Origin: Escherichia phage NHEP1
Direction: 5' to 3' (one strand)
DNA: 64,000 nucleotides
Sequence record: PQ511146.1
Shown here: positions 20,381 through 64,000 of the stretch, piece after piece
How positions within the stretch are numbered: the stretch's first letter is position 1
Layout: every line of letters starts with the position of its first letter
Notes under the pieces: model-generated
The model's input: the letters and a program-made list of their open reading frames with translations, nothing else
What the model was told of the DNA's origin: nothing
Databases searched by the model: none
Translations under genes and position numbers: made by a program

Positions 20381-20409
20381 TTGACATCTTCTCAGGCACT
20401 TGGTAAGAT
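20381..20409 (+). promoter_or_regulatory. sigma70-like promoter (TTGACA-N17-TAAGAT) for rightward accessory operon
   Basis: -35 TTGACA at 20381-20386, 17-nt spacer, -10 TAAGAT; 14 bp from the divergent minus-strand promoter. Confidence 0.55.
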
Positions 20410-20440
20410 TTCTCCACCCACAGAGAACAAGAGACAACTC

Positions 20441-21430
20441 ATGAATCTTGAAAAATATTATACACCAGAAGAGTTAGAGCGCTTGCTCAAAAAATACAGA
20501 CGCAAACAGAATAACGCACGGAAACGGGATATAGAGTTCAACCTGTCATGGGAAGAATATCTCCTATTTGGTAAAAAACTTTTAGGAGAGGGAGTATGCG
20601 ACTATACCCTTATACCTTTCGACATGCACACAGATGAAAACGGACTGGGAAATCCTTTCTACCCATCTCTGGAGCGGATAGATGATGAAGGTCCTTATGC
20701 GGTTGACAATTGTTGTGTGGTGGGATTGAGATGCAACTCCCTAAAGGACTGCCTGGTAGATAAAAAGACCGCAGTCTTGATTAAAGACAAAACTGATCGA
20801 AAAATTGTCCAGCAGATGATGCTCCACCTGAGCGAAGAGCGTATGGAGAAATTGAAAGGTGATTACACTTTTGAAGATTTCATCTTGCAATATGGAACGG
20901 AAGAGGATAAACTAGCACTCTTTGACGAAGAATGGGAGGAAGATATGTCACCGATGCAGGATTTTAAAAACTTCATGGCTAATCGTGGAGCCAACAAGCA
21001 CATTTCTGACATTGTAAACGAGCCTGTAGTAGAGGAGATTGGAGAGATGACGCAACAGGCTTACGAAGAGGAAAAAGAGCCTCAAGTGGTCGAAGAAGAG
21101 CTTACAGAAGAGGTTCCTGCACTGCCTGACGATGTTGAGATTGCCAAAGCTTACACTTTCTATTGCCAGACGTTCTACGATGCAGGTATGAAAGTTGATC
21201 TGTCATTCAGCCAGTTTAAGAGCACATACATTCGAAAATGTTGTGCTTTAACTGGTGAACGTCTCGGTGCCGGACTTAAACCCCTATTAGTTACCGACTG
21301 GAACAAAGGTTTCACCAAAGGTAACTTCATGGTAGTATCTCCAATCATGGAGAAGGCTATGACAGACCTTATGAAGACCACTCGCATGACAATGACCGAG
21401 TTGGCTGGTATTTTCAAGCACGTTAAATAA
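20441..21430 (+). CDS. hypothetical acidic protein with two related Cys-containing segments
   Basis: Track ORF starts at TTG inside the promoter -35; first ATG is 20441; acidic linker EEEKEPQVVEEELTEEVP. Confidence 0.55.
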   Translation: MNLEKYYTPEELERLLKKYRRKQNNARKRDIEFNLSWEEYLLFGKKLLGEGVCDYTLIPFDMHTDENGLGNPFYPSLERIDDEGPYAVDNCCVVGLRCNSLKDCLVDKKTAVLIKDKTDRKIVQQMMLHLSEERMEKLKGDYTFEDFILQYGTEEDKLALFDEEWEEDMSPMQDFKNFMANRGANKHISDIVNEPVVEEIGEMTQQAYEEEKEPQVVEEELTEEVPALPDDVEIAKAYTFYCQTFYDAGMKVDLSFSQFKSTYIRKCCALTGERLGAGLKPLLVTDWNKGFTKGNFMVVSPIMEKAMTDLMKTTRMTMTELAGIFKHVK

Positions 21431-32825: not shown

Positions 32826-32858
32826 CCAGATAAGAAAACCGCCCCGTCAGGAGCGGTC
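32826..32858 (-). terminator. rho-independent terminator after the 581-aa fibre gene
   Basis: Minus transcript CCGCUCC-UGAC-GGGGCGG followed by UUUUCUUAUC. Confidence 0.55.
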
Positions 32859-35974: not shown

Positions 35975-36012
35975 TTAACACTTTAGAGAACAAAATGCAA
36001 GAACGGCATCCT
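35975..36012 (-). terminator. rho-independent terminator between the two fibre cassettes
   Basis: Perfect 8-bp stem GAACGGCA-(4 nt)-UGCCGUUC followed on minus strand by UUGCAUUUUGUUCUCU. Confidence 0.6.
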
Positions 36013-36030
36013 TGCCGTTCTGACCTTTGT

Positions 36031-40767: not shown

Positions 40768-40778
40768 ATCTCGCCGCC

Positions 40779-42269
40779 TTAAATAGTTTGTTGGAAAGTT
40801 ATATTACTTTCGTCGAGGTCAAACACCTCGGTCATGTTTGCAACAATATCGTTTGTAGTGTAAGCTTCGTCAGAGGCTCCTACAGGTTTAACTTGAATTA
40901 CCAATCTGTTAAATCTGCCTATCGACACAGCAGCGGATGCAGCACCTACCAATTGGATATTGTACAACGTATCGGCGACATCCAAGCCGTTAACAACCTG
41001 TAAAAGAGCCTCTACAATGGCATCTTTTTCGGTTGTGGAAAGCGCAGCACCTGAGTAGGTAATTCTTACATCTAGGCGGTAGGTATTTGCCTTGGAGTAA
41101 TAAATCCTTTCAGTCTGACCGTCTGATGTGGTAATATCGTAGAAGATATTCCCATAAGTTCTGTTTGTGCAAGCTATGGTTTGATACAGTGCCTGACAGA
41201 TATCCTCTGTTGCACCACCAAACACCACCACTTGAAACTTATAAGGTGGTATACCTTTCGCATCCGTTTTATCGGTGTTGTTGGAGAACACTCTTACTTT
41301 CTCAACACCTTTCACCTCGCTTACAGCGCTAAGGATTGCAGGACGGGTAGCTTTAGATGTCAGCTGTTTAGTGCTGGAAGCTCTTAAGCGATACTCAGAG
41401 TCTTTCTCAACATCCCTACCCTCATTGAATCTTTCTCGGTTGGTAAGCTTGATAAATCCACTGGGAGTAGGTGACATTGTTGTCACGGTTTCTGCCTCTC
41501 TTGACAGCTCACCAGCCTCGTTAGCGATAACATCTAGGGTGATAGTTCTTTCCCCTACAATCGGGGATACTCTGAAATCTACCCTGCTATTAAGTCCAAC
41601 TTGATCAAGATTCGAATTGTACCCTATCCACAACGTCCCTGTCAACATATCTATCTGAATTAGATCATCATTCAGCAGGGTTGTATTATCGACAATGAAT
41701 TGCTTAATCTCGCCGTAAAAGCTTGGCAAATCAGAAGAGTCCAGAGCCTTATCTGTTAAAACCAGACTTTTTGTTTTGATACTTCCGTCTGTCTGGTTGG
41801 TAATTTGAAAGTTGTATTTCCCAATTCTTAGGTCTGGAGCGTTTATTCTGTGAGCAATAAGATTTCCCGCCACCTGCACATCGTTGCTAAGAACAAAGTT
41901 GCCACTGTCCAGCGTATAAGTTTTGGAATCATAAATCATATTGTACGGCACAGTTGTGTTGATTGTCAACTGGCAGGTACCTGATGATTTAGAACGGCCT
42001 CTTCGGTAAATACCCTGTCTTCCAAGAAGCTCATCCAGGTAAATACCTTCTGCCCCATATAGCGTCTGTGATGCGTATACAGATGCTGCCATAAGAATAA
42101 GTTGATATTCTCGCTCGTTGAAAATAGTGGTCAGCTTATCTGCAACTGAGTTACTTTGTACGTTGAAGTTTTCGCCAAAAGCACGGATCAGGCTTTGCTT
42201 AGTTTCAACGATTAGGTCATTTAGGGTTGGTATAACGAAACCAGCCTCTGTCAATCCATACTTAGCCAC
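40779..42269 (-). CDS. baseplate wedge protein, Baseplate_J (gp6/gp47/XkdT-like)
   Basis: 496 aa; N-terminal GLTEAGFVIPTLNDLIVETKQSLIRAFG, central YRLRASSTKQLTSKATRPAILSAVSEVKGVEKVRVF and C-terminal region fit Baseplate_J pattern; GTG start after GGAGGAG SD. Confidence 0.65.
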   Translation of the reverse strand: MAKYGLTEAGFVIPTLNDLIVETKQSLIRAFGENFNVQSNSVADKLTTIFNEREYQLILMAASVYASQTLYGAEGIYLDELLGRQGIYRRGRSKSSGTCQLTINTTVPYNMIYDSKTYTLDSGNFVLSNDVQVAGNLIAHRINAPDLRIGKYNFQITNQTDGSIKTKSLVLTDKALDSSDLPSFYGEIKQFIVDNTTLLNDDLIQIDMLTGTLWIGYNSNLDQVGLNSRVDFRVSPIVGERTITLDVIANEAGELSREAETVTTMSPTPSGFIKLTNRERFNEGRDVEKDSEYRLRASSTKQLTSKATRPAILSAVSEVKGVEKVRVFSNNTDKTDAKGIPPYKFQVVVFGGATEDICQALYQTIACTNRTYGNIFYDITTSDGQTERIYYSKANTYRLDVRITYSGAALSTTEKDAIVEALLQVVNGLDVADTLYNIQLVGAASAAVSIGRFNRLVIQVKPVGASDEAYTTNDIVANMTEVFDLDESNITFQQTI

Positions 42270-42302
42270 GTCACTCCTCCGGTATGAAAATCTCTACAAG
42301 GT

Positions 42303-42331: not shown

Positions 42332-42336
42332 TCTGA

Positions 42337-42366
42337 GCATAAAAATAAACCCCGCCGAAGCGGGGC
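42337..42366 (-). terminator. rho-independent terminator (UUCG tetraloop) after the 1381-aa gene
   Basis: Minus transcript CCCCGC-UUCG-GCGGGG then UUUAUUUUUAU; same hairpin as at 16203-16218. Confidence 0.7.
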
Positions 42367-42374
42367 TTTAAAGG

Positions 42375-46957: not shown

Positions 46958-47511
46958 ATGATCGGGCGGCTTGCCACCTGATCCACATATTTAAAAAATC
47001 TGTCATTATCGTTTCTTGAGCTATGGCTCTCCTCTGTGTACCGATAAGGAAAACCTCTTAACCAGCTGTTGAAGATGGAAGATATGGATATGGACAAAGC
47101 ACTATTCTCCCCTGTCTGAATAGCCATGTCTGTTATAAGGCCGTCAAACAAGCCATTGGTTGTAACAGGTAAACCATTCTCCATAGCTGTGATATACAAC
47201 GTGGCACGACAACCCGAATACTCCGTCTTCAGCAGATCACCTACATACTTGGGATCAAACCCGTTCAATGTTGCTACCACAGATCCGAAGTTGGTGGCAT
47301 CTTTCTCAGACACAGCAGTCAATGTTGCTGATCCACCTATCCCTATAAAATGTTGCCCCTCAATCACCACAACACCAGTTCCTGAGCACACCCTGACAGT
47401 CCCTGTTGGTAGCTCTAGCTTTGCAGCAATTAAGATCTCAACACTATCAAGCTCCAGCTTTTCAAGAAATAAATTATCTAATGGCGCTCTAATCATCTTA
47501 GAAATCCTCAA
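46945..47511 (-). CDS. tail tip assembly protein (hypothetical)
   Basis: 188 aa; overlapping stop/start with neighbours. Confidence 0.4.
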   Translation of the reverse strand: MRISKMIRAPLDNLFLEKLELDSVEILIAAKLELPTGTVRVCSGTGVVVIEGQHFIGIGGSATLTAVSEKDATNFGSVVATLNGFDPKYVGDLLKTEYSGCRATLYITAMENGLPVTTNGLFDGLITDMAIQTGENSALSISISSIFNSWLRGFPYRYTEESHSSRNDNDRFFKYVDQVASRPIIWEV

Positions 47512-48088
47512 AGAAGTTGATAACTATATTATCACCTTTTTGCATAGCATCGACTTTTTGCTTAATTTTATAAATATCTCTGATATGAAACCTACCCTTT
47601 GGGGATTGAGTTATTATCTTCATAGTGTCCCCTGCGGCAATAGGTTTTCTAAGTCTTGGAGATATGCTTATAACAGCAGACCCAACACCATCGCTGCGCA
47701 CTGGAGCTGTTACCACTTTCAATTCATCGTTAACAGATATTTTATCCCCAGCTCTGGCTATGTCTCTGTTTGGCTCCCATCCGACCGTCTTCAAAAAATC
47801 GTCGTTACCAGTAGGCCCAAGGGCGATTGGCTCATTAGCTGTTACTGAGTGACCGTACGTTTTAATAAGAAAAATGTTCCCATCTTTATACACCTGATCA
47901 ACAAAGCTCTTAAGCTCTAGCAGTTGTGACTCGCTGATATTGGAAACCGTCAAAGTGCCTTTCCAGTTAGGTGTGGCATAGGTCACTTTTTGCGTTTTAC
48001 CTGTAAACGGACTTTTAAACGTAACAATATCTGCCAGCAGCTCCAATCTGATGTCTGGAAGGTATCTAGGCCTTTCCCATAAAAACAT
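47498..48088 (-). CDS. tail tip protein (hypothetical, distal-tail-like position)
   Basis: 196 aa; first gene after terminator 48148-48180. Confidence 0.4.
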   Translation of the reverse strand: MFLWERPRYLPDIRLELLADIVTFKSPFTGKTQKVTYATPNWKGTLTVSNISESQLLELKSFVDQVYKDGNIFLIKTYGHSVTANEPIALGPTGNDDFLKTVGWEPNRDIARAGDKISVNDELKVVTAPVRSDGVGSAVISISPRLRKPIAAGDTMKIITQSPKGRFHIRDIYKIKQKVDAMQKGDNIVINFFEDF

Positions 48089-48147
48089 TGTGCCTCCAGG
48101 TTAAACAATCATGATAGTTATTTTACCAGATTTTGAGTTAATACGCA

Positions 48148-48180
48148 ATACAAACAAAAAGCCCCCGCCGAAGCGAGGGC
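48148..48180 (-). terminator. rho-independent terminator (UUCG tetraloop) after the 1272-aa fibre gene
   Basis: Minus transcript GCCCUCGC-UUCG-GCGGGGGC then CUUUUUGUUUG. Confidence 0.65.
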
Positions 48181-48187
48181 AAAACAG

Positions 48188-52006: not shown

Positions 52007-52011
52007 TCTTT

Positions 52012-52036
52012 CTCCTGAAAGGGGGCAAACAGCCCC
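52012..52036 (-). other. intergenic hairpin GGGGGC-UGUUU-GCCCCC immediately upstream of fibre gene SD (weak terminator/attenuator)
   Basis: 6-bp GC stem between stop of 52042..54639 and AGGAGAAAGA SD of 48188..52006; short UUUC tail. Confidence 0.4.
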
Positions 52037-52041
52037 CTATG

Positions 52042-54639
52042 TTAAAGGTACAATCCACGGTATTGAGCATAAAGTCCCAGACCGCGAAGGATTTCGCCAG
52101 AGTGATAGCCTACCGGATCAGAAACTGCCCAGCAGCCGTTTAAAACATTATCCCCGTTAATGAAGTGGTGCTTTTGCAGTAACTTCATACAGGCTTCTAC
52201 AACAATATCTATTTGAGGTATTGTCTCTGAATACCCGCAAAGACCTAGCCAGCAGCAACCTGCAAGCCATTCACCTACCACCCACATCCTGTCTCCTCTG
52301 TCCTGATAAGAGTATCCTCCAGAGGTGTTAAAGTCTGTAGGTAGATTTCCTGAATGAGATGACTGGAATCTGTTGAGGAACCATGCCCATTTCTGGCAGA
52401 ACAGGAACAGTCTTTCATCAACAGGTTCTTTATGTTTCTTGAGCTCATATATTGTGCGGCACGCAGCAACAAAAGATCTTGACTGGAGCTTAGAGTTATC
52501 TACCATCTCCCACCAACCAGTCAACCCTTCATTACCTCTTTGCCATACATAACGTGAGGCAACTGGACCCTCTGTCTTAAATGTATTATTATACCAGACT
52601 TGAGAGTCGTACAGAAAGCCTATTGTATTTGACAATCTATGGCGATCTATGTTTTCTGCACCCATGCAGTAGACTGCTGGGTATTGCATGCCAGGGTAGG
52701 GCCAATTTGGCTTTTCCTCTAAGAGATAGTTTTCCTTATCTATCACCTTCCCAGCAGGGAACACACCAGGAGTGTGTCTGTATGCTCCTTGCTTGTAGTT
52801 TCTGACATAGCAATCACCAACCTTGGCGGTTGATTCTGTCTTGCTTGCCATCCATACACTAAACCAGATCAGATAAGCATCCCTATCTGCAACATAAAAT
52901 TGCGGCAGCGTGTTGACGCAATACAGATCGAACAAGCCATTGCCTATCTGCCTGTCGCTCAGACTGAAATCTACAGAGGTAATTCCTTTAGGGTTAGCAA
53001 AGAAAGGTTTAATCTCATCTTCTGTGTGATGAGGTTGTGTTGGGTCTAGTTTAAAATCGCCCAGGGTAAGAGTTTCTGTTATCCATTGCCCGTTAGTAGC
53101 ATATAGATCAGCATACCATAACCAACGGTCTTTGTCAAGAAATTTGACCCTTACCATCTCATCATCTGACCGATAAGTCACTGAGTTTAAAGAAATCTCT
53201 CTTCCAAAATTGAAAGTTACCTTGCCTCTTACTATGTTGCAACGGGTGAAGTTGTCAGAGTGGTTGTAAATGTCGGTATCATACTGCATACTGACACTCG
53301 CGCCACCGCTTACGGTAATGTTTTCCTCTTTTGGCAAGAGATACGGGTTACCGTCTTTACCAACCACCTCCACGAAATCGGTGACCTTGGCAACTGTCTC
53401 TGTTACCTCTGACCCTCCAAAAGGGACCCCTATCCTATACTGTTTTTTGTTATTGTTGCCATCATTAAGGATGAAATGTGGCTGAAACAGAACCCCTTCT
53501 CCTCCGAAATTCATAACAATTTCAGCATCTCTGCCTATTTTGTATGTAATCCCTTTTTGGATTATTTCGCAAGGCTGGCGTGCGTTCATTCTAAAATTGA
53601 TATATCCGTCACTATCCCTACTCATGACAGGTACTGTTCCTGCAACTAGACAGGTGCCATCTGTGAACGGAGCCTTAATCAACGTGGTCTTTCTAAACAG
53701 TTTGTCGTAGGCATTTATATCACTGAAATTAAGCAGCTTGTTGTAAGATTGCTTAAACGCTGTGTAATACTTTTCCTCACCTGTCAAGGTATAGAGTTGA
53801 TAACAAGCGTCACACCACATTTCTTCCCCGTCCAACTCTGGGGCTTGATTGTCTGCAACCACGTTTATAGGATTTACAATTACAGGGGATCCAGCAGGTA
53901 TCACCGATCCACCCTGCTCTTGTGGCAATCTCACACAGTAGGTTACCTTGTGGCTGCCTGTAACACCCTTATCCTGCAGTTGGATTGTGCCGAACTCTGC
54001 AGACGTATGACCACTATCGGCTATGCTACCATTGGCCCAATAGCGGTTACCATCCCATGCTATATACCACTCAACCCACCAACTTAATCCAGATGTTGTC
54101 CAATTTGGGTTAGCATCTGTGCCGCCGTAAACATCAGAGTCTACAGTGTTTCTTCCTAGCACACCGTTATACGCTTGGAATGCCTTGTCTAAGTATTCTC
54201 CCCATGTCGGGGATCCAGCTGGGATTTTTCCTCTACCATTGGTGAAAGACACCACTACATCTTTAAACCCACCATGTGATGGAACCCCATCTGTGGATAA
54301 CGGGTAGTGGGACAATCTTTGCATTTTACTTTCTACTGCATATACGCCCAGAAGATGACTGTTGTAGGCTTCCCAAGCCTCTTTGGCCCTATCTAGATAA
54401 AAATCGCTTTTTGATGCCCTGTATGCCTCAATGTACCCCAGAATCAACACAGCCTGAGCTTCATGCATTGCCCAATCATTATTTATCTTACTCCCTGACC
54501 AACCTGACGCTATAAGTCCATCCTGGTTTACCAGTTTGTTCTGCGTGGGGAGATTGGTAATGCCTGTGTTGTTATCGAGGCACTTCCTGTGCCCCTCAAT
54601 CATCTGAAATACGTTATCAATGTTGTGTTGAATACGCAT
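52042..54639 (-). CDS. putative tail-associated polysaccharide-degrading enzyme (alpha/alpha-toroid-like, speculative)
   Basis: 865 aa; aromatic/Trp-rich helical segments at both ends with beta-rich middle; own AGGAG SD inside the end of the upstream gene; start 1 nt after upstream stop. Confidence 0.35.
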   Translation of the reverse strand: MRIQHNIDNVFQMIEGHRKCLDNNTGITNLPTQNKLVNQDGLIASGWSGSKINNDWAMHEAQAVLILGYIEAYRASKSDFYLDRAKEAWEAYNSHLLGVYAVESKMQRLSHYPLSTDGVPSHGGFKDVVVSFTNGRGKIPAGSPTWGEYLDKAFQAYNGVLGRNTVDSDVYGGTDANPNWTTSGLSWWVEWYIAWDGNRYWANGSIADSGHTSAEFGTIQLQDKGVTGSHKVTYCVRLPQEQGGSVIPAGSPVIVNPINVVADNQAPELDGEEMWCDACYQLYTLTGEEKYYTAFKQSYNKLLNFSDINAYDKLFRKTTLIKAPFTDGTCLVAGTVPVMSRDSDGYINFRMNARQPCEIIQKGITYKIGRDAEIVMNFGGEGVLFQPHFILNDGNNNKKQYRIGVPFGGSEVTETVAKVTDFVEVVGKDGNPYLLPKEENITVSGGASVSMQYDTDIYNHSDNFTRCNIVRGKVTFNFGREISLNSVTYRSDDEMVRVKFLDKDRWLWYADLYATNGQWITETLTLGDFKLDPTQPHHTEDEIKPFFANPKGITSVDFSLSDRQIGNGLFDLYCVNTLPQFYVADRDAYLIWFSVWMASKTESTAKVGDCYVRNYKQGAYRHTPGVFPAGKVIDKENYLLEEKPNWPYPGMQYPAVYCMGAENIDRHRLSNTIGFLYDSQVWYNNTFKTEGPVASRYVWQRGNEGLTGWWEMVDNSKLQSRSFVAACRTIYELKKHKEPVDERLFLFCQKWAWFLNRFQSSHSGNLPTDFNTSGGYSYQDRGDRMWVVGEWLAGCCWLGLCGYSETIPQIDIVVEACMKLLQKHHFINGDNVLNGCWAVSDPVGYHSGEILRGLGLYAQYRGLYL

Positions 54640-54640
54640 C

Positions 54641-55309
54641 TTAGATAGCTCCTGCTATAATCAGTGCCCCGTACCAAGTTAGCCCGTTGTCGTAGGTTTC
54701 TAACTTGAAAATATCTGTTGCACCAGCTGTAAATGTTAGGATAGGATCTCTTCCGTATGCCCATTTAACATTATCAGGCCAATAGACTTTGTTACCGCCA
54801 GAGGTCTGAGTAATGCATACGGTTATAGTTCTCGCTACCCCTTCAAGACCTTCTGTCTGATTTTCAAAAGAGATTGTGGTATTTGAAGTTAGTCGAACTT
54901 TAAAAGTGTCCGCAACTTCAAGATCCATATCAAGCTGACCACCAATAGATCCGTAATCAACTATTCTGCCAGAAGAAGTTGCAGCAAGCTCCCCAAAAAC
55001 AGACCAGGCTTTTGCAGACACACCCCCAGCACCCTCTACAGTAGAGTCTGGGAGGATTATTTTAGGGTAATCCCCGTTCCACGTGTAGTATCGCTTGGTC
55101 TCTGGGTCATAAGCAAAGTCCTTCTTGCTCTTAAGATAACCGCCCTCTGTGAAATAAACTATTTTAGTAATGCTAAGATCATTGACAACATCATCAATCT
55201 TAGCCTTTCTTGTCCCGTCAGTCTGGTTGACAACCAAGAAGTCATCACTCAAGACTGTTTCTGCATCTTCAAGATCTGGGATTGGTATTGTAGGATAAGC
55301 TACAGCCAT
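54641..55309 (-). CDS. tail fibre N-terminal anchor-domain protein (adapter)
   Basis: 222 aa; DDFLVVNQTDGTRKAKIDDVV...FTEGGYLKSKKDFAY aligns with N-terminus of 48188..52006 (DDYLVVQQPDLTRRVKIGDVV...FKEGGKLNGPMDFAY). Confidence 0.55.
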   Translation of the reverse strand: MAVAYPTIPIPDLEDAETVLSDDFLVVNQTDGTRKAKIDDVVNDLSITKIVYFTEGGYLKSKKDFAYDPETKRYYTWNGDYPKIILPDSTVEGAGGVSAKAWSVFGELAATSSGRIVDYGSIGGQLDMDLEVADTFKVRLTSNTTISFENQTEGLEGVARTITVCITQTSGGNKVYWPDNVKWAYGRDPILTFTAGATDIFKLETYDNGLTWYGALIIAGAI

Positions 55310-55318
55310 GATTTCTCC

Positions 55319-56035
55319 TTAGTTAACATCAATAGCACGACCAGACTGGTTGGCAATAGCCTCATCATTAGAGGTAGCAATAACACCCGAATATTCGCGC
55401 TCATCTGGAGCAAGCGTCCAGGTATTGCGGTTAATGGTTTGTTCTGCATCAGTCATCAGCAGATCTTTATCCTGAGTCAACAGAGAACCTACAGGGATCG
55501 GGTTTTCCATCTCAGGACCAGCATACTGGTTCCACCACGTAGCATCCCCGGTTCTAGGCAACCTGAAGTTGATCAGGTAGTACAGTTTATTAGCCCACTT
55601 AATCCAACCTTCATCATCACACAGAGAGGTTGTCCCAGCATCAGGCTGTGGATAGGTAAACTGGTCAAGACCTACGAAAGCAAGTCTTACAATCTCGTTC
55701 TCTTTGGTAACAACCTCAAAGAACGCTTGGTATGTTCTCGATCTTCGATCCATGGTGGATTGGAAGTTTATGATGTTTAGTACATCCGGCTCTTGTCTTG
55801 CCACTTCCATAATCTTGTTATCAAGAACAGTCTTCATGACCTTCTTACTGAGAAAGTCCATATAAGGGAAGCCAAACAACTCGTCAAAGTACCAGCTCCC
55901 TTTCCAGGTATTAAACCTCATCCACAGGCGCTGGCGCAGACTTACCTGGTTTGAGTCTATCAACTCAAGACCTTTATCTATCGCCAAATCACCTGTCTGT
56001 GGGTCCATCAATATATCACTATAAAGCGTAGCCAT
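55319..56035 (-). CDS. baseplate wedge protein, gp25/GPW-like
   Basis: 238 aa; TWKGSWYFDELFGFPY resembles the GPW/gp25 core motif (...KGSRPFDPEFG...). Confidence 0.5.
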   Translation of the reverse strand: MATLYSDILMDPQTGDLAIDKGLELIDSNQVSLRQRLWMRFNTWKGSWYFDELFGFPYMDFLSKKVMKTVLDNKIMEVARQEPDVLNIINFQSTMDRRSRTYQAFFEVVTKENEIVRLAFVGLDQFTYPQPDAGTTSLCDDEGWIKWANKLYYLINFRLPRTGDATWWNQYAGPEMENPIPVGSLLTQDKDLLMTDAEQTINRNTWTLAPDEREYSGVIATSNDEAIANQSGRAIDVN

Positions 56036-56047
56036 GCAAGCCCTCTA

Positions 56048-56725
56048 TTAGTGCGGTCCACTTGTCTCGCCATCAGGGCAAGAGTGGGTATGACCTTTAT
56101 ATTCTGCATAGAATGAGTCCAAATCCACACCAGCAGCCGTTATAATTCTACCAGACGGGTCTACTGTTGCACCATTCATTCTAATATTCCCATCCACAGC
56201 AGCTCGTAAGTTGGCAGCTCCGTTAGTGAAAGAAAACTCCCCACTACTGTCGCACCGTAATGTCCCGCCAGGTGTTTGAAGCTCAAAATCACCAGAAGGT
56301 GTCAGCTTAAAATAAACCCTATCATTCCATAACTCCACATTATCAGGATCGATCTGCAAAGCGTTCGAGTCTGAATGAACAGAGGTTATTGCCCACCCTG
56401 GAAACAGACCGTGAGTTTGTTGATCGTCGTTATTGTTTTCATTTCTCTCTGAAAACTGCAACCCTACAACATCGCCAGCCTTAATAGGGAGTGTTAACCT
56501 TGCCTTCCCACTGTTTGCAGACATCACCTGGATCGGAACGTCATAAATAAGAGGGTATCTCTCAACATCCCCGTCATCAAACGTGGTTTCAGCTATTGGC
56601 TGTACTGCTGCGGAGGGGATACTGTAATCTACACTGACAACTCTGGCCCTGATACTGGTGTGGTAGTCCCTCATTATTTTTTCTATAAAGGATCTTACAG
56701 CAGCATCTTTCCTATTTATTGCCAT
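56048..56725 (-). CDS. baseplate central spike, gpV/gp5-like
   Basis: 225 aa; C-terminal KGHTHSCPDGETSGPH with HxH metal-binding-type apex motif; adjacent to gp25-like gene. Confidence 0.55.
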   Translation of the reverse strand: MAINRKDAAVRSFIEKIMRDYHTSIRARVVSVDYSIPSAAVQPIAETTFDDGDVERYPLIYDVPIQVMSANSGKARLTLPIKAGDVVGLQFSERNENNNDDQQTHGLFPGWAITSVHSDSNALQIDPDNVELWNDRVYFKLTPSGDFELQTPGGTLRCDSSGEFSFTNGAANLRAAVDGNIRMNGATVDPSGRIITAAGVDLDSFYAEYKGHTHSCPDGETSGPH

Positions 56726-57723
56726 TATACCTCCTCAGTTTTGTCAACAACTCCACCCACTGTTTCCCCAAGGCCAAGCTCTGTAGTGTAATCACCACCT
56801 TCTATGGTGCCCTTATGATGGACTGTGATCACCTTATAGAAGCCTGTGTATTGCCTGCTTTTAAGATAAATGGTGGACTCTGGGAGGATCGCCCCGTTAA
56901 GACATGTGGTTACAGTAAGACCAACATCCTCTCTCGGGTTTTTCTTTTTCTTACTTGTGCCACCTTTCGCAGCAGCTTTAGCTTTTCGTTTTTTAGCAGG
57001 TTCTGGGTTTTTAGGTGTGGGTGATCCGTGCATCCCAGACTCTGCACTTATTTCAAATACAGAGTCCTTGAACCTTTTTCCAACCTTGGTCCAATATAGA
57101 GCACCGTCCTGAACGCTGAATGTTGAGTTTGTCAGCCTTGCAAACCTGCGGAGGTTCTCTGCAGTGTTCCCAGAGAAAGCCATAGAGTATTGTAAAGTCT
57201 GGTTTCCAAAACCAACAACCCTACCTTTTGGCAAGTTCATATCCTTCAGCAGGTCATTAAGCACAGAGTTCAGAGGTGTGCCCTTCTGATAAGACCTTGT
57301 GCTTTGGCACTTAATGATGTTCTCAGTGCCATCCCCAAAGATGAACTTAGTTTTTCTGGTCGGACCTTCCCATCTGTCCTCAACAAACTCTACAGTTCCG
57401 GAGAATATCAACTGGTTCTCATTATCATAGCCAGCCTCAAACATAACTGCAAGAGCATCAGCTTGATGCATATCCAGATAGTTAACTGTATCGTCAGACA
57501 GGTTGTAAACTGTCACATAGCCTTTGTTTGGCTCTTTGGTATTGTCCTTTTGTATGTCAAACTCGATATTGGCAGCACCAGTGTCCGAGCTAATCTCATA
57601 AACTCCGGAATCACTCTCTCCTTTCTTTTCAACAGATTTTGGGATATTGGTTTTTGATTTACCGCCATGCTCTACAGGACGACCAAATAATAATCGCCAT
57701 GTTCTACGTCTGTACTCTGCCAT
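56725..57723 (-). CDS. tail/baseplate protein (hub-like position), hypothetical
   Basis: 332 aa; Lys-rich segment PEPAKKRKAKAAAKGGTSKKKKNPR; between tape measure and spike. Confidence 0.35.
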   Translation of the reverse strand: MAEYRRRTWRLLFGRPVEHGGKSKTNIPKSVEKKGESDSGVYEISSDTGAANIEFDIQKDNTKEPNKGYVTVYNLSDDTVNYLDMHQADALAVMFEAGYDNENQLIFSGTVEFVEDRWEGPTRKTKFIFGDGTENIIKCQSTRSYQKGTPLNSVLNDLLKDMNLPKGRVVGFGNQTLQYSMAFSGNTAENLRRFARLTNSTFSVQDGALYWTKVGKRFKDSVFEISAESGMHGSPTPKNPEPAKKRKAKAAAKGGTSKKKKNPREDVGLTVTTCLNGAILPESTIYLKSRQYTGFYKVITVHHKGTIEGGDYTTELGLGETVGGVVDKTEEV

Positions 57724-58103
57724 TATTCTAACCCTTGCTGTTCCTTGTAAAGATCAACTGGGGTGCCGTATACAAGCTGTAGCTCGGATCTTGCTCCAAG
57801 GTTGTATCTTCCAACCCTGCCCCAATATTGATCATCTTTAAACGACAGCGCCATCAACCTACCTTTCGGTAAATCGTCTCTGTAATGCAGTCCGTCTAAG
57901 ATATCTTGACAAGCTGTTACTTTTCTGGTTACTAAAGGGCTGTCACCTACCGGACCAAGGGATAACCACCAAGACTCATCCCTCTCATTCCATTGCATAC
58001 GCATTTCATACGTTTCATTGTCTAAAACAACACGCATGGTTTGATCGGGAAAGCCGTCAATGTCCCACACAAAGGTGATTATGCACCAATCTTTAAGCTC
58101 CAT
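57723..58103 (-). CDS. tail protein, hypothetical
   Basis: 126 aa; stop/start overlap with neighbours. Confidence 0.4.
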   Translation of the reverse strand: MELKDWCIITFVWDIDGFPDQTMRVVLDNETYEMRMQWNERDESWWLSLGPVGDSPLVTRKVTACQDILDGLHYRDDLPKGRLMALSFKDDQYWGRVGRYNLGARSELQLVYGTPVDLYKEQQGLE

Positions 58104-58114
58104 TGCACGCCCCC

Positions 58115-58999
58115 TTATTTTCCGTTAACTTTGTTGTAGTTTCCCTGCTCAGATGGGACTATGGTAGAAGGTCTTCCATATTCCTGATAATACCAATCCG
58201 CAGCAGATTGAGTAACACCGTTTTCATCCGTCCACATCATAGATTTGTATGGCTGCCACTCTTCTGCGGCATTTGTGGATGCAGTGTCTGCAAATGCCCC
58301 TGTATCCCTCTTGTTACCTACGTTACTGCCATTCTTACAGTCGTTGACAGCACCTTTTTGCTGGGTCTTGCCTACTTTCTTAGGGTTGCTGTATACAGTT
58401 GCATTAACAACCTTGTTCAAGTAGAATGTGCGGAACTCTGTAAGTTCTACATCAAACACCATCGCAGCACCTTCACCAACAGACTTGTTGGCAGAAAGGC
58501 TGGTTATGATGTAGTTCTCAAGGAGTCTTTCCTCGGTAACCAAAGAAACCAACTGGCGCTTATTAATGATCTCAGTCAAAGCCTCCAGTGCAGCGCCTGG
58601 TCGCATAGATGCTGCAGGATTTTTAGAGTCAGTGTTCCTGTCAATGTAGTTTTGCTCATAGATTATATGTGGTGATGTATTTACCCTACCAGTAAAAGAA
58701 AATACACCATCTTTAATTACAGCGTGGTCTGACAGGGTAGATTTATCTTCCACCGCAAACCCAGTTTTATCAACAGAATGTTTGAAAGAGTAGTTCTCAA
58801 CCTGATCGAAGATAATGGCAAGATCGTTAGTAAAGTTTTTACCCTTCATCTCCGTATTGCGACCACCATAGTTAAGACCGCTGACAAACATAGTGTACTT
58901 TACATCGCTTTCAGTTTGCTGCTCTGCCTTTTCAGCCTTTGGAGATTTAACCTCTTGAGGCTTGTACAGGTCTTTTTCATCAACTATATTGCTTGGCAT
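58115..58999 (-). CDS. tail protein, hypothetical (first gene after tape measure)
   Basis: Track start 59026 abuts the promoter -10; second ATG at 58999 follows GGAGAGG SD. Confidence 0.4.
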   Translation of the reverse strand: MPSNIVDEKDLYKPQEVKSPKAEKAEQQTESDVKYTMFVSGLNYGGRNTEMKGKNFTNDLAIIFDQVENYSFKHSVDKTGFAVEDKSTLSDHAVIKDGVFSFTGRVNTSPHIIYEQNYIDRNTDSKNPAASMRPGAALEALTEIINKRQLVSLVTEERLLENYIITSLSANKSVGEGAAMVFDVELTEFRTFYLNKVVNATVYSNPKKVGKTQQKGAVNDCKNGSNVGNKRDTGAFADTASTNAAEEWQPYKSMMWTDENGVTQSAADWYYQEYGRPSTIVPSEQGNYNKVNGK

Positions 59000-59032
59000 A
59001 ACCTCTCCAGGACACTCCGATACCATCTAGAT

Positions 59033-59061
59033 ATTGTATCATAAAATAGCCGTTTTTACAA
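59033..59061 (-). promoter_or_regulatory. sigma70-like promoter (TTGTAA-N17-TACAAT)
   Basis: Read on minus strand after terminator 59065-59092: -35 TTGTAA, 17-nt spacer, -10 TACAAT. Confidence 0.45.
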
Positions 59062-59064
59062 CAC

Positions 59065-59092
59065 CGATAAAATAAAGGGGGCCGGAGCCCCC
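59065..59092 (-). terminator. rho-independent terminator after tape measure gene
   Basis: Minus transcript GGGGGC-UCCG-GCCCCC followed by UUUAUUUUAU. Confidence 0.65.
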
Positions 59093-59105
59093 TATGTGCC
59101 GTTTA

Positions 59106-61442
59106 TTACCAAAGATCTGTTGACATAAAGTTAATATCTTTGTTGTTCTCCCACTCAAGTTTTGCATCAATTATTTTGTTAAACTCGCCCTCATTTATTG
59201 AAATAGTGATTTTCCCATCACTGATCTCTAAAGGCAGCATTTCCATAGTTCTTAATTGAGAAGCAAAACCAGGGCCACCTGGCAACGGAAGAGTACCGCC
59301 AGGTAAGGTGTCCAAAGGATCAACAAACCCGTTACCTCCGGATATAATATCTTTGCGAATCATATCGCTGATAGTATCCAGTTGCTGATTTCTTTCACTC
59401 AGCGGGTTGAAACGGTCATTAAATAACTCTCCGGCACTTAATATTGTGCCGATAATGCCCAGCTTGCCAAGTATGCCAACTTTACCACCAGGTGTCTTGA
59501 GGCCACCTCCACCTTTTCCTGCTGCGCCGCCACCACCAGATCCTTCTGCAGTGGCTGCACCTGCTGCTCCAGCTGCACCTCTTAGAGAACTAAGGAATTT
59601 AAAGGTTTTTACAAGCATGGATGCCATGACAAAACCTTTTGTCAGGGCGTTGACGACCAGCATGATGGCAGCAGCAAACCCTGCCCATTTAGCATAGCTA
59701 AAGGTGTCATGAAGCTCTTCAGAATATTCCTTCGTCTTAGCTGTTATGAATCCCCATTTAATCCCCCATTCAAGGAAAAACATGCGGATCTTGACTATAG
59801 TGTTGTTCAGTTCACCAACTACCCAGTTAAGACCTCTCACAAACCCGCTAACAAAATCACCAGAGGCATCCCACACAAATTGCAAAGTCTCACCAGTGCG
59901 GATCAGTGTATAATAGAACTCTGTTAGTTCGTCAGCCCAACGGGTGAACAGTTTCTGACGGGACAGTTCGATGAAGGTTTTCAGTCTGTTTTCTGCCAGC
60001 ACGTTAGACTTCTGCATTCTCTCATAACCAGCTGCAGATGCCTCGTTCATGTACTTAGCCACATACTTCATGATCTTGGCTGTTTTAACCTCACCTTTCT
60101 TCATCATGTCCATGAACTGATCCATGGAGAGTTCAGAAAGACCAAAAGCCTCTTTGGTGGCCTTGATGAAAGGTTCATATGCCCCAGGTAACGCTTCAGC
60201 AAGTTGTTGCTTAAGTTCTTCGGACATTACCTGTCCTTTACCAAGCATTTGCTGGATTGCCATAATACCGCGCTGGTATTTTACCTCATCCGCACCATAA
60301 GCAGCAGCATACTGTGAGTATGCAGAGAATAGCTCATGGACCTCTTGGTTCGTCATCTGATTTTTGGCGTTCACCGCCATCTGAGAATAACCCTGAAGAC
60401 CAGATTTGAGATCAAAACCAAGACGCATGGCCTCTTGCTGGACAAACGCAACTTCACTGTTGGCTTTGTTTGGATCTCCAGTAACAGCAGTAAGAGCAGC
60501 ACTTGCCCCCTCCATCATGTGACCGGATCTGTTCACCGCAGCAAATCCAGAAAAAGCTGTATACGCAGCTGTTGCATTAATAACAGATCTACGTAAGTCT
60601 CTCAGGGCATCGCCTAGTGTAAGCGTTTGGCTGGTGGCGCTTTTAAACCCAGACTGCAGAGCTGACAGGTGGGCGTTAAAGGTTGACTTTTTCATCTCTC
60701 CGCGAGCAAACCTGGACTCTAACTCAGAGTATCCTGGCAAGCTTCCACGGAATCCGGCTCCATACTTGGCAGAAAGTCTTATCGCAGAGTTGTATAGGTG
60801 GGTTCTCCTTGCCTCACGATCCGACATAAGCCTATTATCCATACCAGCTTTACTGTCCCTTCTTAGCTGCCTATGGTAACGGTTCATAGCCGCTGTCTGA
60901 GCTTTCACAAGATTAGGGTCGGAAGCCACACCACCCATGTTAGGGTTACCGGGGATATATTTGAAAGATTTGGCATTAGCCAAAACTCTTGCCTTAGGTG
61001 CCTTATAACCACCGTAAGACACTGGTGCAGATTTGGCAGCCTTTTTGGCCTCTTTAGCTTGCTGCTGGTAGAACTTACGCATCCTAGCCATTTCTGGATT
61101 TTTAGCGGTAAGATTACCCACAGCTTGTTTACGTCTCGCGTTCTCCCTACGTTCTATTGCAGCCCTTACTGCAGCCTCTTTCTTGGCTTGTGTTACGCTC
61201 TCCCTGTGCAGTTTAGCATTTGCCTGAGATTGCTGTCTGGCAACCCGCTGCATTGTTTGCTGGGTTTTAACAGCCACTGCCTGCCATCTACTCATTGGGT
61301 TGGCTGAGTTAAAATCCTCGCCCAGTTTCCTGAACTCCCTCCCAATACTGCGAATTTTCTCTACAGCTTTTTTGTAGGAGGAGTTCTCTATCTCAAAGCC
61401 AATCTTGTTGACTGTTGTGGCAACTATTTTGTTTGTAGCCAT
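59106..61442 (-). CDS. tail tape measure protein
   Basis: 778 aa; helix-rich, Ala/Gln/Lys-rich, Gly-rich segment (GAAGAAGAATAEGSGGGGAAGKGGGG) with hydrophobic stretches; directly downstream of G/GT chaperone pair. Confidence 0.8.
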   Translation of the reverse strand: MATNKIVATTVNKIGFEIENSSYKKAVEKIRSIGREFRKLGEDFNSANPMSRWQAVAVKTQQTMQRVARQQSQANAKLHRESVTQAKKEAAVRAAIERRENARRKQAVGNLTAKNPEMARMRKFYQQQAKEAKKAAKSAPVSYGGYKAPKARVLANAKSFKYIPGNPNMGGVASDPNLVKAQTAAMNRYHRQLRRDSKAGMDNRLMSDREARRTHLYNSAIRLSAKYGAGFRGSLPGYSELESRFARGEMKKSTFNAHLSALQSGFKSATSQTLTLGDALRDLRRSVINATAAYTAFSGFAAVNRSGHMMEGASAALTAVTGDPNKANSEVAFVQQEAMRLGFDLKSGLQGYSQMAVNAKNQMTNQEVHELFSAYSQYAAAYGADEVKYQRGIMAIQQMLGKGQVMSEELKQQLAEALPGAYEPFIKATKEAFGLSELSMDQFMDMMKKGEVKTAKIMKYVAKYMNEASAAGYERMQKSNVLAENRLKTFIELSRQKLFTRWADELTEFYYTLIRTGETLQFVWDASGDFVSGFVRGLNWVVGELNNTIVKIRMFFLEWGIKWGFITAKTKEYSEELHDTFSYAKWAGFAAAIMLVVNALTKGFVMASMLVKTFKFLSSLRGAAGAAGAATAEGSGGGGAAGKGGGGLKTPGGKVGILGKLGIIGTILSAGELFNDRFNPLSERNQQLDTISDMIRKDIISGGNGFVDPLDTLPGGTLPLPGGPGFASQLRTMEMLPLEISDGKITISINEGEFNKIIDAKLEWENNKDINFMSTDLW

Positions 61443-61454
61443 GCTTTCCTCATA

Positions 61455-61491
61455 ATAAAAAGGGCCAGATCCCAGAAAAGGAATCCGGCCC
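61455..61491 (-). terminator. stem-loop with U-tract between chaperone genes and tape measure gene (attenuator-like)
   Basis: Minus transcript GGGCCGGAUUCC-(loop)-GGGAUCUGGCCC followed by UUUUU, then GAGGAAA SD of tape measure. Confidence 0.45.
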
Positions 61492-61496
61492 TTAGA

Positions 61497-61745
61497 TTAT
61501 CCTCTCCTGCGTTTAGCTTTCGCAGCAGCTGCGGCAGCCCTCTGCTCCCGCTCCATTTCCCTATTTTGGACGGTATCTAGGAATTCTTCGATATCAAGAT
61601 ACTCACAGAGTTTCAGGAAATACGCCATATCTGCAAGATTTAGCGATTCAAAATTTTCCCCTTTGAAATTCTTGAGCACCCTGCACCAAAGAAAGTCGAA
61701 CCAGTTAAGTGAACTGTTCTTGGCTGCCCACTCACTGGCCCTCAC
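61497..61745 (-). CDS. tail assembly chaperone T segment (expressed as G-T fusion by -1 frameshift)
   Basis: 82 aa with GTG start; its frame is open about 38 codons upstream, overlapping the end of 61757..62230 in the -1 frame. Confidence 0.55.
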   Translation of the reverse strand: MRASEWAAKNSSLNWFDFLWCRVLKNFKGENFESLNLADMAYFLKLCEYLDIEEFLDTVQNREMEREQRAAAAAAKAKRRRG

Positions 61746-61756
61746 AACAACCTTGC

Positions 61757-62230
61757 TTATTCCTGCTCTTCCGGAGCCTGATCCAGATTGTTCACCTGCT
61801 GGATCATACCCATCTGCTGTAACATCTCCAGAAGGCTTCCTAAACCGTCTTGTGTGAAAAAACAGCCGTAGTTAACCTCCAGAACCTTACCTGCCAGCTT
61901 AATCATCTCCAGCAGATGCCCTGCAAACACAACATCAGGGTTAAGCTTATCCACACCATCCACGGTAATATCTTCGAACAAGATTTTAAATAACTCTTCA
62001 ATAGAGTTATCATCAAGTTCTTGAAACAGGTAAGCCAGGGCTGTAGGAAGGACCTCTGCCATATTCTGACCACCTGAGAGAATAGATCCGCCGACAGCTC
62101 CTAGCGGGACAGCTACAATCTTACCGATTTTAGGCATGTTTTTCATTGCTTTCATCGGTCCCCAGTGGGTGATCACAAAGTTGTGCCCTGCTAAATCAAT
62201 CTCTGTTGTAGGTCTAAAGTTTATAGCCAT
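61757..62230 (-). CDS. tail assembly chaperone (gpG-like)
   Basis: 157 aa acidic protein immediately upstream of tape measure; contains slippery heptamer. Confidence 0.65.
   Translation of the reverse strand: MAINFRPTTEIDLAGHNFVITHWGPMKAMKNMPKIGKIVAVPLGAVGGSILSGGQNMAEVLPTALAYLFQELDDNSIEELFKILFEDITVDGVDKLNPDVVFAGHLLEMIKLAGKVLEVNYGCFFTQDGLGSLLEMLQQMGMIQQVNNLDQAPEEQE
61856..61862 (-). other. programmed -1 ribosomal frameshift site (slippery heptamer U UUU UUC)
   Basis: In-frame T_TTT_TTC at codons Cys123-Phe124-Phe125 of chaperone gene; -1 frame open from here into 61497..61745. Confidence 0.55.
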
Positions 62231-62273
62231 TTTATAGCATCCTTATTAGTCATGTTGTGCACCATATTTGTGT

Positions 62274-62302
62274 ATTTTACCATGATTATGGTGCATTGTC
62301 AA
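62274..62302 (-). promoter_or_regulatory. sigma70-like promoter (TTGACA-N17-TAAAAT) upstream of chaperone/tape-measure genes
   Basis: Read on minus strand: consensus -35 TTGACA, 17-nt spacer, -10 TAAAAT. Confidence 0.6.
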
Positions 62303-62341
62303 TTTAACCTTTCAAGCAATCCAAAAGAGTTTGTCAAAACC

Positions 62342-62374
62342 ATAAAAGCAAAAAGCCCCACCCGAAGGTGAGGC
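62342..62374 (-). terminator. rho-independent terminator (UUCG tetraloop) after tube gene
   Basis: Minus transcript GCCUCACC-UUCG-GGUGGGGC followed by UUUUUGCUUUU. Confidence 0.65.
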
Positions 62375-62392
62375 TTATACTAAAGTGTGCCC

Positions 62393-62866
62393 TTAGATAA
62401 TACCTGCAAGACCTGCGAGGCCAGTGAGAGCACCAGTGATGTTGTCACGGTTGAGCCATGCATCCAGAATACCGATATCCCAGTCCAGCTGACCTACTTC
62501 GGTTCCGTAAGTGAGGTCAGGCTGTTTTTGGATCCAACCGATTGTGGCAATACCAGGACCCTGGCTACCTTCCAGTAGAACCGGGAAGAATACCAGACCA
62601 GTAATAGATGCCTGTTTCTGCCAGTCAGAAAGGTAAGCGTTCCATACAGAAGTGTTCTGCAAAGACACAGTCATAACACCAGATTGGTTACGAGACAGGG
62701 CTGCAGACATTTCGCCATCCACACCAACATGAGGGTAGATGTTGTCTTCGTTTCTTGAAACAACAATCTTGGTGTCAGCAGCGAAGCCAGTGACACGCTG
62801 CTGCATCAGATACAGTTTGACCTTTTTAGGGTCATAAGCATAAGGAGTTAAAATTTGAGTTTCCAT
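62393..62866 (-). CDS. tail tube protein (putative)
   Basis: 157 aa; positioned between putative sheath and chaperones. Confidence 0.45.
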   Translation of the reverse strand: METQILTPYAYDPKKVKLYLMQQRVTGFAADTKIVVSRNEDNIYPHVGVDGEMSAALSRNQSGVMTVSLQNTSVWNAYLSDWQKQASITGLVFFPVLLEGSQGPGIATIGWIQKQPDLTYGTEVGQLDWDIGILDAWLNRDNITGALTGLAGLAGII

Positions 62867-62876
62867 CTAGTCTTCC

Positions 62877-64000
62877 TTATTCAGTCATTGCAACAGCATT
62901 GGTGGATTTAGAACCAACCTTGTCCAGAAGGACGTTGATCCGGATACGAACGAAGTGCAGGGCGTTGTTATACACCAGTTCTACTTTCACACCTTCCAGA
63001 ACACGAGCAGCCAACTGATTGGTTGGGATCTCTGCACGTTTAGGAACTGTGATGATCGGGTCGTAGAACACATTGTTGTCTTCGTCAAAACCTGTCAGGA
63101 TCGCGCCATTCTTAATGCCGGTATTGATCGGGTTGTTCATCAGAACAGACTTGATAACCGGAAGATCATCATCAGACATCTTCATGCTTAAACCCATATT
63201 GGAGCGACGATGCATGTACCCAAACATGGATTCTTCAGATCTGAACTTGATCCAGTGTGCAAAACGAATAGCGTCTGCATACTGACCTGAAGCACACTTA
63301 CCTTCCCAGAAAGCGCCAACACCGTTAATCATTCTGTAGAAGTTAACGTGGTTTTCCCAAATCGCCATACGTTGAGTTAAAGTCAGAGATGGTGCAATCA
63401 CACCTGGCATCTGTTTTAAGTGCAAGCTGTCACCGTAGGACGGATCGTTGGATGCCATAGCACCTATGATACCACCCTCCGGGAAGTCCTTATCTGCACG
63501 AGGATCGTACATGCCAACACTGTCATATTGTGCAGCTTTCAGTTTGGTAGCGATGTTGCTATCTTTGCCAGTCACATCTTCTGCAGTAGAGTAGACGTGC
63601 AGCTTGTAGTTGGCCTGAGCCCACTTAGCACATGCTTCAATGTCGGTGTGGTCTTCATGGCACAGGAAGTACCAATTGTCCCGCTCAGCATTGATCTTAT
63701 CAACTACTGTAGAAGGTTTTTCAGAATTGGCGATATTCTTGATTGTATAGTTACCAGTATGATAACCAACAGTGCAGTCACCAGTGATGGTGATAACACC
63801 TTCAGAAGCCTCTACAGTGATATCGTTCAAGTTATCATCTGCTTCGATTTTAGTCTTCATTGATTCTGCAATCTGAGTTGCAGCTGTCCCACCAGAGATA
63901 GGAACTATCAAAGAGGTATTGTAGCCACCTTTTGCAATGGTCATTACGACATCGGTATCAGCTGCGGCAGCAATACCTTTAAAATCTACAGTGGTTTTTT
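62877..64000 (-). CDS. tail sheath protein (putative), N-terminus beyond window edge
   Basis: Frame stays open upstream of track ATG (63944) to window end; position before a 157-aa tube-like protein; C-terminal region loosely sheath-like. Confidence 0.45.
   Translation of the reverse strand, partial: KTTVDFKGIAAAADTDVVMTIAKGGYNTSLIVPISGGTAATQIAESMKTKIEADDNLNDITVEASEGVITITGDCTVGYHTGNYTIKNIANSEKPSTVVDKINAERDNWYFLCHEDHTDIEACAKWAQANYKLHVYSTAEDVTGKDSNIATKLKAAQYDSVGMYDPRADKDFPEGGIIGAMASNDPSYGDSLHLKQMPGVIAPSLTLTQRMAIWENHVNFYRMINGVGAFWEGKCASGQYADAIRFAHWIKFRSEESMFGYMHRRSNMGLSMKMSDDDLPVIKSVLMNNPINTGIKNGAILTGFDEDNNVFYDPIITVPKRAEIPTNQLAARVLEGVKVELVYNNALHFVRIRINVLLDKVGSKSTNAVAMTE

Follow-up and report, generated by a model that had tools for sequence, protein, structure and literature searches.

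Predicted terminator-promoter cassettes with sigma-70-type extended -10 promoters in the late module of the rV5-like Escherichia phage NHEP1

The DNA analysed here, referred to below as the window, is a stretch of 64,000 nucleotides (nt) from Escherichia phage NHEP1 (PQ511146.1), and the elements in question are promoter-like sequences that stand behind predicted transcription terminators among its late genes and would together with them form terminator-promoter cassettes. Megablast of positions 56000-64000 retrieved 116 phage records with at least 80% query coverage; the closest is Escherichia phage vB_EcoM-ECP32 (ECP32), at 99.0% identity, and FV3, slur16 and phages of the BASEL collection are about 96-98% identical in the same search. 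Identity to genomes of the rV5 group is 96-99%. The matches to ECP32, FV3, slur16 and the BASEL phages therefore assign the window to the genus Vequintavirus, that is, to an rV5-like myovirus, and Bas59 EduardKellenberger, a close and well-annotated relative, served as the annotation guide. The minus-strand part of the late module, with tail, baseplate and fibre genes, spans positions 27184-64000; the remainder consists of a replication block on the minus strand (1-20298) and an early block on the plus strand (20381-26932), which opens with the gene for an Srd-like 'anti-sigma factor'. For phage rV5, Kropinski et al. (2013, Virol J 10:76; PMC3606486, Additional file 4) listed the promoters P051, P036, P048, P040 and P030 and the terminators t052, t050, t049, t041 and t028, and these names are used here for their counterparts in the window.

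Five promoter sites are predicted in the late module. All of them have the orientation of the tail genes, whose coding strand is the minus strand, and each is preceded on its 5' side by a G+C-rich hairpin and T tract. The tail tube protein gene (62393..62866, minus strand; its product shares 100% identity with the tail tube protein annotated in Bas59) is the last gene before t052, a predicted intrinsic terminator (62376..62353, minus strand; AAGCCTCACCTTCGGGTGGGGCTT followed by TTTGCTTTTA) whose 10-pair stem contains 6 G-C pairs. In rV5 this terminator was given -18.3 kcal/mol (Table S4, PMC3606486), and the annotations of phages Murica and Alma mark its equivalent as a terminator. P051 follows (62302..62274, minus strand; TTGACA, 17 nt, TGG-TAAAAT-A), agreeing with the consensus at 11 of 12 positions and identical as a string to the rV5 entry in Table S4; the first gene downstream of it encodes the tail assembly chaperone (61757..62230, minus strand; Pfam PF21822 Phage_TAC_15, E = 1.2e-23). 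The tail tape measure protein gene (59106..61442, minus strand; annotated after close relatives) is followed by predicted terminator t049 (59093..59076, minus strand; GGGGGCTCCGGCCCCC followed by TTTATTTTAT) and then by P048 (59061..59033, minus strand; TTGTAA, 17 nt, TGA-TACAAT-A; 9/12), upstream of the tail tube initiator gene. The longest open reading frame (ORF) of the latter is 58115..59026 on the minus strand, and the start given for it by the ORF finder, 59026, would fall on the predicted transcription start; in relatives the annotated start is at 58999, 27 nt downstream and with the ribosome-binding site GGAGAGG, which is probably the correct one and is compatible with the 59 kb promoter. 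Behind the gene for a 1381-amino-acid tail fibre protein lie another predicted terminator (42368..42347, minus strand; AAGCCCCGCTTCGGCGGGGTTT followed by ATTTTTAT; 9-pair stem with 6 G-C pairs) and P036 (42331..42303, minus strand; TTGACT, 17 nt, TGG-TAAAAT-A; 10/12), which precedes a baseplate gene (40779..42269, minus strand).

An earlier inspection of the letters by themselves (the sequence-only reading) had named these three promoters and placed them behind terminators in the structural operon; both are borne out, save that the strand is now corrected to minus. Two further sites, absent from that reading, belong to the same set. P040 (48148..48120, minus strand; TTGCGT, 17 nt, TGG-TAAAAT-A; TGGTAAAAT), listed as a late promoter in rV5 Table S4 part C, stands behind predicted terminator t041 (48180..48161, minus strand; 8-pair stem with 7 G-C pairs), which follows a lateral tail fibre gene. 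P030 (36000..35972, minus strand; TTGCAT, 17 nt, TGT-TAAAAT-A; TGTTAAAAT), likewise in the rV5 table, has a hairpin or terminator abutting its -35 hexamer (36021..36000, minus strand; AGAACGGCAAGGATGCCGTTCT). The terminators at 42.35 kilobases (kb) and 36.0 kb are additions to the published table, which has neither. In three other late gaps (61443-61496, 52007-52041 and 32818-32865) a terminator or hairpin leads directly to a ribosome-binding site with no promoter: the first holds t050, a strong predicted terminator between the chaperone-extension ORF and the tape measure gene (61493..61460, minus strand; 14-pair stem; -24.2 kcal/mol in rV5, Table S4, PMC3606486), and the last holds predicted terminator t028 (32858..32837, minus strand). 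On the transcribed strand, t052, t050, t049, t041, t028 and the 42368..42347 terminator each combine a G+C-rich hairpin with a T-rich tract behind it.

The five promoter sites share one architecture. TG occupies positions -15/-14, one base upstream of the -10 hexamer, at 5 of 5 sites in the window, at 8 of 8 late sites of Bas59 and at the orthologous sites of Seunavirus and Certrevirus. The -10 hexamer is TAAAAT at four sites and TACAAT at the fifth, which keeps the A at position 2 and the T at position 6. The -35 hexamers (TTGACA, TTGACT, TTGTAA, TTGCGT and TTGCAT) each stand at a 17-nt spacing and are near consensus in two cases only. A start codon with a ribosome-binding site lies 29-44 nt 3' of each site (34-44 nt for the three named earlier). 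With TTG at -35, a 17-nt spacer, TGn and a near-perfect -10, these findings support the identification of the sites as sigma-70 extended -10 promoters, at least in every hallmark that can be read from sequence. The near-consensus character noted in the sequence-only reading extends to the -35 at only 2 of the 8 late sites. As judged from sequence, the set resembles the E. coli extended -10 (TGn) promoters in its TG at -15/-14, its near-consensus -10, its tolerance of a weak -35 and its 17-nt spacer; it differs from them in the unusual uniformity of the -10 (TAAAAT followed by A) across sites and genera. Recognition by sigmaS, for which C at -13 is the hallmark, was considered and rejected, the base at that position being G, G, G, A and T at the sites of the window.

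Two observations of smaller scope concern the same sites. A perfect 9-base-pair (bp) inverted repeat (TGCACCATA at 62258-62266 and TATGGTGCA at 62287-62295, 20 nt apart) encloses both the -10 and the start expected for P051. Its left arm is polymorphic in two (metagenomic) relatives and its right arm carries no compensating change; with the arm centres about 29 bp apart as well, an operator or RNA hairpin was rejected, and the repeat is probably not functional. Inside the baseplate gene downstream of P036, two 11/12 sigma-70 matches (TTGACA, 18 nt, TACAAT; 41969..41940 and 41645..41616, minus strand) lie 324 nt apart, co-oriented with the gene and not covered by any DNA repeat; they could be chance matches or internal promoters.

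Within the genus, the promoters are better conserved than the adjoining linker DNA. Across 10 Vequintavirus sequences of the tube-to-chaperone gap, the linker from the terminator tail to about -47 varies in 8 of 28 columns, against 2 of 84 for the P051 promoter core plus the 5' untranslated region (Fisher p = 2e-4), and the core itself is invariant in all 10. The 59 kb promoter is invariant in 6 Vequintavirus sequences save for one spacer position. Beyond the genus, TGnTAAAAT recurs at orthologous late-gap positions in Seunavirus SSE121 and Certrevirus F5M2A. The prohead-protease gene is preceded by TTGCAA-17-TGnTAAAATAA in all three genera, with spacers that agree at a minority of positions, and the tail-completion gene by TTGCTT in Bas59 and Certrevirus and TTGATT in Seunavirus; the spacers between the hexamers have thus diverged across genera while the hexamers were kept. 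Vequintavirus, Seunavirus, Certrevirus and the more distant Phapecoctavirus ESCO5 all have a terminator and then an extended -10 promoter behind the tape measure gene, and the 59 kb site, the lowest-scoring of those first named, is therefore the most deeply conserved in position.

The two sites with the best -35 hexamers have a narrower distribution. No counterpart of the 62.3 kb promoter was found in the orthologous gap of Henuna-, Seuna-, Mydo- and Certrevirus, where the gap measures about 75 nt and holds a different, conserved hairpin, and conservation of this promoter beyond the genus was rejected accordingly; on this comparison of sequences, the best-scoring and most consensus-like site is a genus-specific insertion of Vequintavirus. 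At 42.3 kb, TGATAAAATA is retained in the orthologues of Seunavirus and Certrevirus, where the -35 hexamers are weak (TTTATA and TTTTAA), so that the Vequintavirus TTGACT reads as an upgrade of such sites. The hairpin that occupies the tube-to-chaperone gap outside Vequintavirus is GCCACATGGACGTGGC (e.g. positions 1975-2048 of one compared relative stretch). The same gap contains a small hairpin with the ribosome-binding site AGGAG in its loop (ACGC-AGGA-GCGT), of which one G-C pair is replaced by A-U on both sides in 5 of 11 sequences; it may act on translation of the tail assembly chaperone gene or on the stability of its RNA. In ESCO5, a member of Stephanstirmvirinae, sigma-70-like promoter sequences with a -35 of TTGACA or TTGCAA lie in late gaps 206-412, 710-849, 3784-3884, 5451-5543 and 15888-16013 of the compared stretch; some have TG, which was checked by script only at 206-412, 710-849 and 15888-16013. 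The ESCO5 gaps suggest, as far as sequence resemblance goes, that the promoter strategy is shared more widely than Vequintavirinae.

It is proposed that the cassettes divide a long late transcription unit of tail and baseplate genes, with promoters of the sigma-70 extended -10 class that the host holoenzyme would be able to use; we consider this the likely interpretation. In such a scheme the predicted terminators after the tube, chaperone, tape measure and several fibre genes would halt most incoming transcription, and a promoter 10-70 nt past the terminator would restart it, giving each segment its own expression level. Region 2.4 of sigma would contact TAAAAT or TACAAT, region 3.0 the TG at -15/-14 and region 4.2 the TTG 17 nt upstream, and host RNA polymerase holoenzyme could in principle initiate there without a phage sigma factor. 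We infer the actual transcription start, the sigma factor used and the timing at these sites. Recognition by sigma-70 is suggested because the set of elements is TTG, 17 nt, TGn and TAnAAT with free variation at -13 beside a fixed TG, and because no alternative factor (phage RNA polymerase, sigma, AsiA or MotA) was found; the annotation of relatives contains no phage RNA polymerase or sigma factor.

Several observations weigh against this interpretation. A generic sigma-70 scan stays at the chance level in this A+T-rich DNA: it gave 39 matches in 44001-64000, where 33.2+-6.1 are expected, and 41 in 27000-46999 (33.2+-6.0 expected). It was rejected as evidence, since it finds no more than it does in shuffled sequence and since 11/12 matches also fall within genes. 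Matches of 9/12, like the 59 kb site, are common inside genes. The more specific pattern TTG-N17-TGnTAnAAT, which has 5 matches in the whole window (128 kb of strand) against 0.29 expected and was not matched 5 times in any of 100 shuffles, was composed after the sites had been seen, and the test was therefore repeated on the complete Bas59 genome. In the paper library searched, no Vequintavirus transcriptome, time course or transcription-start map was found, the sole RNA sequencing paper naming the group having studied a T5-like phage. The late sites share an A at hexamer position 3, an A right after the hexamer and mostly a sub-consensus -35, features that could reflect recognition by a modified polymerase or an unrecognised factor. 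They form, by sequence, a subclass distinct from the dense early and middle TTGACA promoters, a difference expected if a class-specific switch exists. Finally, the Pfam screen that found no sigma, AsiA or MotA domain and one weak HTH_36 match among 115 uncharacterised non-structural proteins covered the relative Bas59, not this genome, and a novel fold would escape it.

The repetition in Bas59 bears on whether the sites might be mere chance matches in A+T-rich gaps beside terminator T tracts, with a late operon read only by read-through from far upstream. Such an origin would accord with the generic scan, with the three late gaps that work with a terminator and no promoter, and with the genera that manage without the 62.3 kb promoter. 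Against it, the specific architecture exceeds expectation about 17-fold in the window and about 110-fold on the late strand of Bas59. All 5 matches in the window are on the minus strand, in 5 of the 8 intergenic gaps of the late module, which together make up about 670 nt of coding strand. The complete Bas59 genome has 10 matches, all on the strand of the downstream genes; in its 46.8-kb late block there are 8 on the coding strand (0.07 expected) and none on the opposite strand. At least 10/12 agreement together with TG was seen 9 times in the window, against 1.5+-1.1 expected. Given this strict strand specificity and the conservation of the hexamers beside diverging spacers and linkers, an accidental origin is extremely improbable.

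Both the sites and the interpretation put forward in the sequence-only reading were already published for rV5 in 2013, where P036, P048 and P051 have the same promoter strings and gene context as in the window. The rV5 authors, pointing to the genome-wide distribution of promoters, suggested that modification of the host's polymerase as in T4 'might not occur in rV5', and likened an 8-copy late motif, TggTAaAAtA, to the T4 late box (PMC3606486). They presented the sigma-70 list and the late motif found with MEME as two sets; here both are treated as a single extended -10 sigma-70 class, every late-block member of the published motif also having TGn and a TTG exactly 17 nt upstream of the -10. 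The two analyses differ in the register of P048: Table S4 (MEME) puts the late motif on TGTTGTAAAAAC, which is the -35 region here, and the -10 is taken here to be TGATACAAT, 20 nt downstream. The comparison with Seunavirus, Certrevirus and Phapecoctavirus favours the latter register, which is that of the sequence-only reading. What is added to the rV5 paper is modest and consists of the unified TTG-17-TGnTAAAATA architecture, its cross-genus conservation and the genus-specific insertion at 62.3 kb. A full-text literature search for the motif string returned unrelated papers only. For Certrevirus, of the same phage subfamily and likewise dependent on the polymerase of the host, Buttimer et al. 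(2020, PMC7344957) reported sigma-70-like promoters by motif search, AAAA(N3)TGTTGAC(N19)TATAAT, of the early and middle class only; the TGnTAAAAT sites found here in the Certrevirus late module are not described there.

The likeness to T4 raises the question of whether TGGTAAAATA is the site of an unrecognised phage late factor, an analogue of T4 gp55 reading TATAAATA, with the TTG at -35 incidental. T4 late promoters (TATAAATA, served by gp55, gp33 and gp45) do share with the present sites a short A+T-rich -10 box upstream of structural genes and part of its sequence, the resemblance seen by the rV5 authors (PMC3606486). Moreover, sigma-70 would tolerate a less uniform -10 than the TAAAAT plus A that nearly all sites have in three genera, and the function of most non-structural genes is obscure. 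Nevertheless, a T4-type late promoter, which has no -35 and no requirement for TG, was rejected, as the core here, TGnTAAAATA, includes a fixed TG and lies at a set distance from the TTG at -35. The base at -13 is free (G, A, T, C) beside that fixed TG, which is the signature of sigma-70 region 3.0 rather than of an 8-mer box, and the TTG stands at a fixed 17 nt in 8 of 8 Bas59 sites, with the -35 hexamers kept across genera. The gp55/gp33/gp45 gene set itself was looked for and rejected: the rV5 paper reports no homologues (PMC3606486), and there are no sigma domains among the 115 hypothetical proteins screened in Bas59. A dedicated late factor is thus very unlikely. The middle promoters of T4 were considered as well. 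These carry a MotA box, (a/t)(a/t)(a/t)TGCTT(t/c)A, near -30 and about 12 nt from the -10, and depend on MotA and AsiA, both phage-encoded. A MotA/AsiA reading was rejected since TGCTT occurs at 1 of the 8 late sites, at the wrong spacing, and the Bas59 screen gave no AsiA or MotA Pfam match.

A further alternative retains sigma-70 polymerase but places it under a phage-imposed switch, in which a phage protein blocks -35 recognition (compare T4 AsiA on sigma region 4) or otherwise handicaps the TTGACA early promoters, so that the extended -10 late promoters keep firing from a modified polymerase. Extended -10 promoters resist inhibition by T4 AsiA. In favour of such a switch there are two contrasting promoter classes. 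Outside the late block, in the early and middle regions, TTGACW-N16-18-TAnnnT is matched 54 times, where about 3.6 would be expected on each strand. Of these matches, 50 run in the direction of the genes around them; the -10 hexamer differs among them, and TG is present in 18 of the 50. The late block, by comparison, has an invariant TGnTAAAATA, the -35 being weak (mostly TTGC..) at 6 of the 8 Bas59 sites, and its only two intergenic sites with a TTGAC-type -35 are those at 62.3 kb and 42.3 kb; a near-consensus -35 is therefore the exception, and the extended -10 the constant feature of the late module. The contrast is partly built in, since the early class was defined by requiring TTGACW. The TTG at exactly 17 nt in all 8 late sites, and a sub-consensus -35 that is kept across genera, speak for a continuing role of region 4 contacts.

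Within the window, the Srd-like protein (20381..21430, plus strand), named an 'anti-sigma factor' in the BASEL collection, is the only candidate for a modifier of the polymerase. Its PHROG similarity to 'decoy of host sigma70' (E = 7.8e-13) and 'Srd anti-sigma factor' (1.2e-9) is weak and would favour a switch; its best PHROG family is labelled HNH endonuclease (E = 4e-111), which speaks against one, and it has no Pfam match, so that the function label is uncertain on these similarities. T4 Srd has also been linked to RNase E. The Bas59 screen, which gave no AsiA or MotA Pfam domain, also counts against a switch, and one acting through a modified polymerase is considered unlikely. A related conjecture, which we put forward as a speculation that is rather improbable, is that the late promoters are a conserved, distinct sigma-70 subclass across Vequintavirinae and seemingly Stephanstirmvirinae, in which TGnTAAAATA is combined with a deliberately sub-consensus, conserved -35 (TTGCAA, TTGCTT) and which would survive a block of the -35-dependent early promoters by a non-AsiA factor, candidates being the Srd-like or other early proteins. 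If this were true, the phage would make a T4-like early-to-late switch without any late sigma factor or activator.

Returning to the proposed use of extended -10 promoters by the host holoenzyme, the suggestion in the sequence-only reading that unmodified host polymerase reads the late genes stands in part. The sigma-70 hallmarks, the conserved cores between variable linkers and the lack of sigma, AsiA or MotA domains in the screen favour the host enzyme; 'unmodified' goes beyond what was found, given the distinct late subclass and the Srd-like protein. The same reading had also remarked that the late genes might be modulated by attenuation. The three late gaps with a terminator or hairpin and no promoter imply that the genes after them must depend on read-through, and they lend substance to that remark, partial read-through in the late module being plausible from its predicted elements. 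Should host sigma-70 indeed act on the extended -10 sites, the rV5-like coliphages, a widespread group used in therapy and biocontrol, would time their structural genes unlike T4, without a dedicated late sigma factor, and the short cassettes would be usable as strong, portable parts and as engineering landmarks.

Hairpins also occur elsewhere in the window. In gaps 5177-5234, 10718-10778 and 16183-16231 of the minus-strand replication block, a G+C-rich hairpin stands directly before a ribosome-binding site and there is no promoter-like element; as a rule, this block seems to be punctuated by hairpins alone, without restart. No Rfam family reached its gathering score in the window. Lastly, the tail region is matched by 18 records labelled 'Campylobacter phage' (host Campylobacter jejuni), among which MG065635, MG065672, MG065647, MG065682 and MG065644 are about 95.7-95.9% identical over the full 3.6 kb compared; they appear to be rV5-like coliphages whose host is wrongly labelled, or contaminants.

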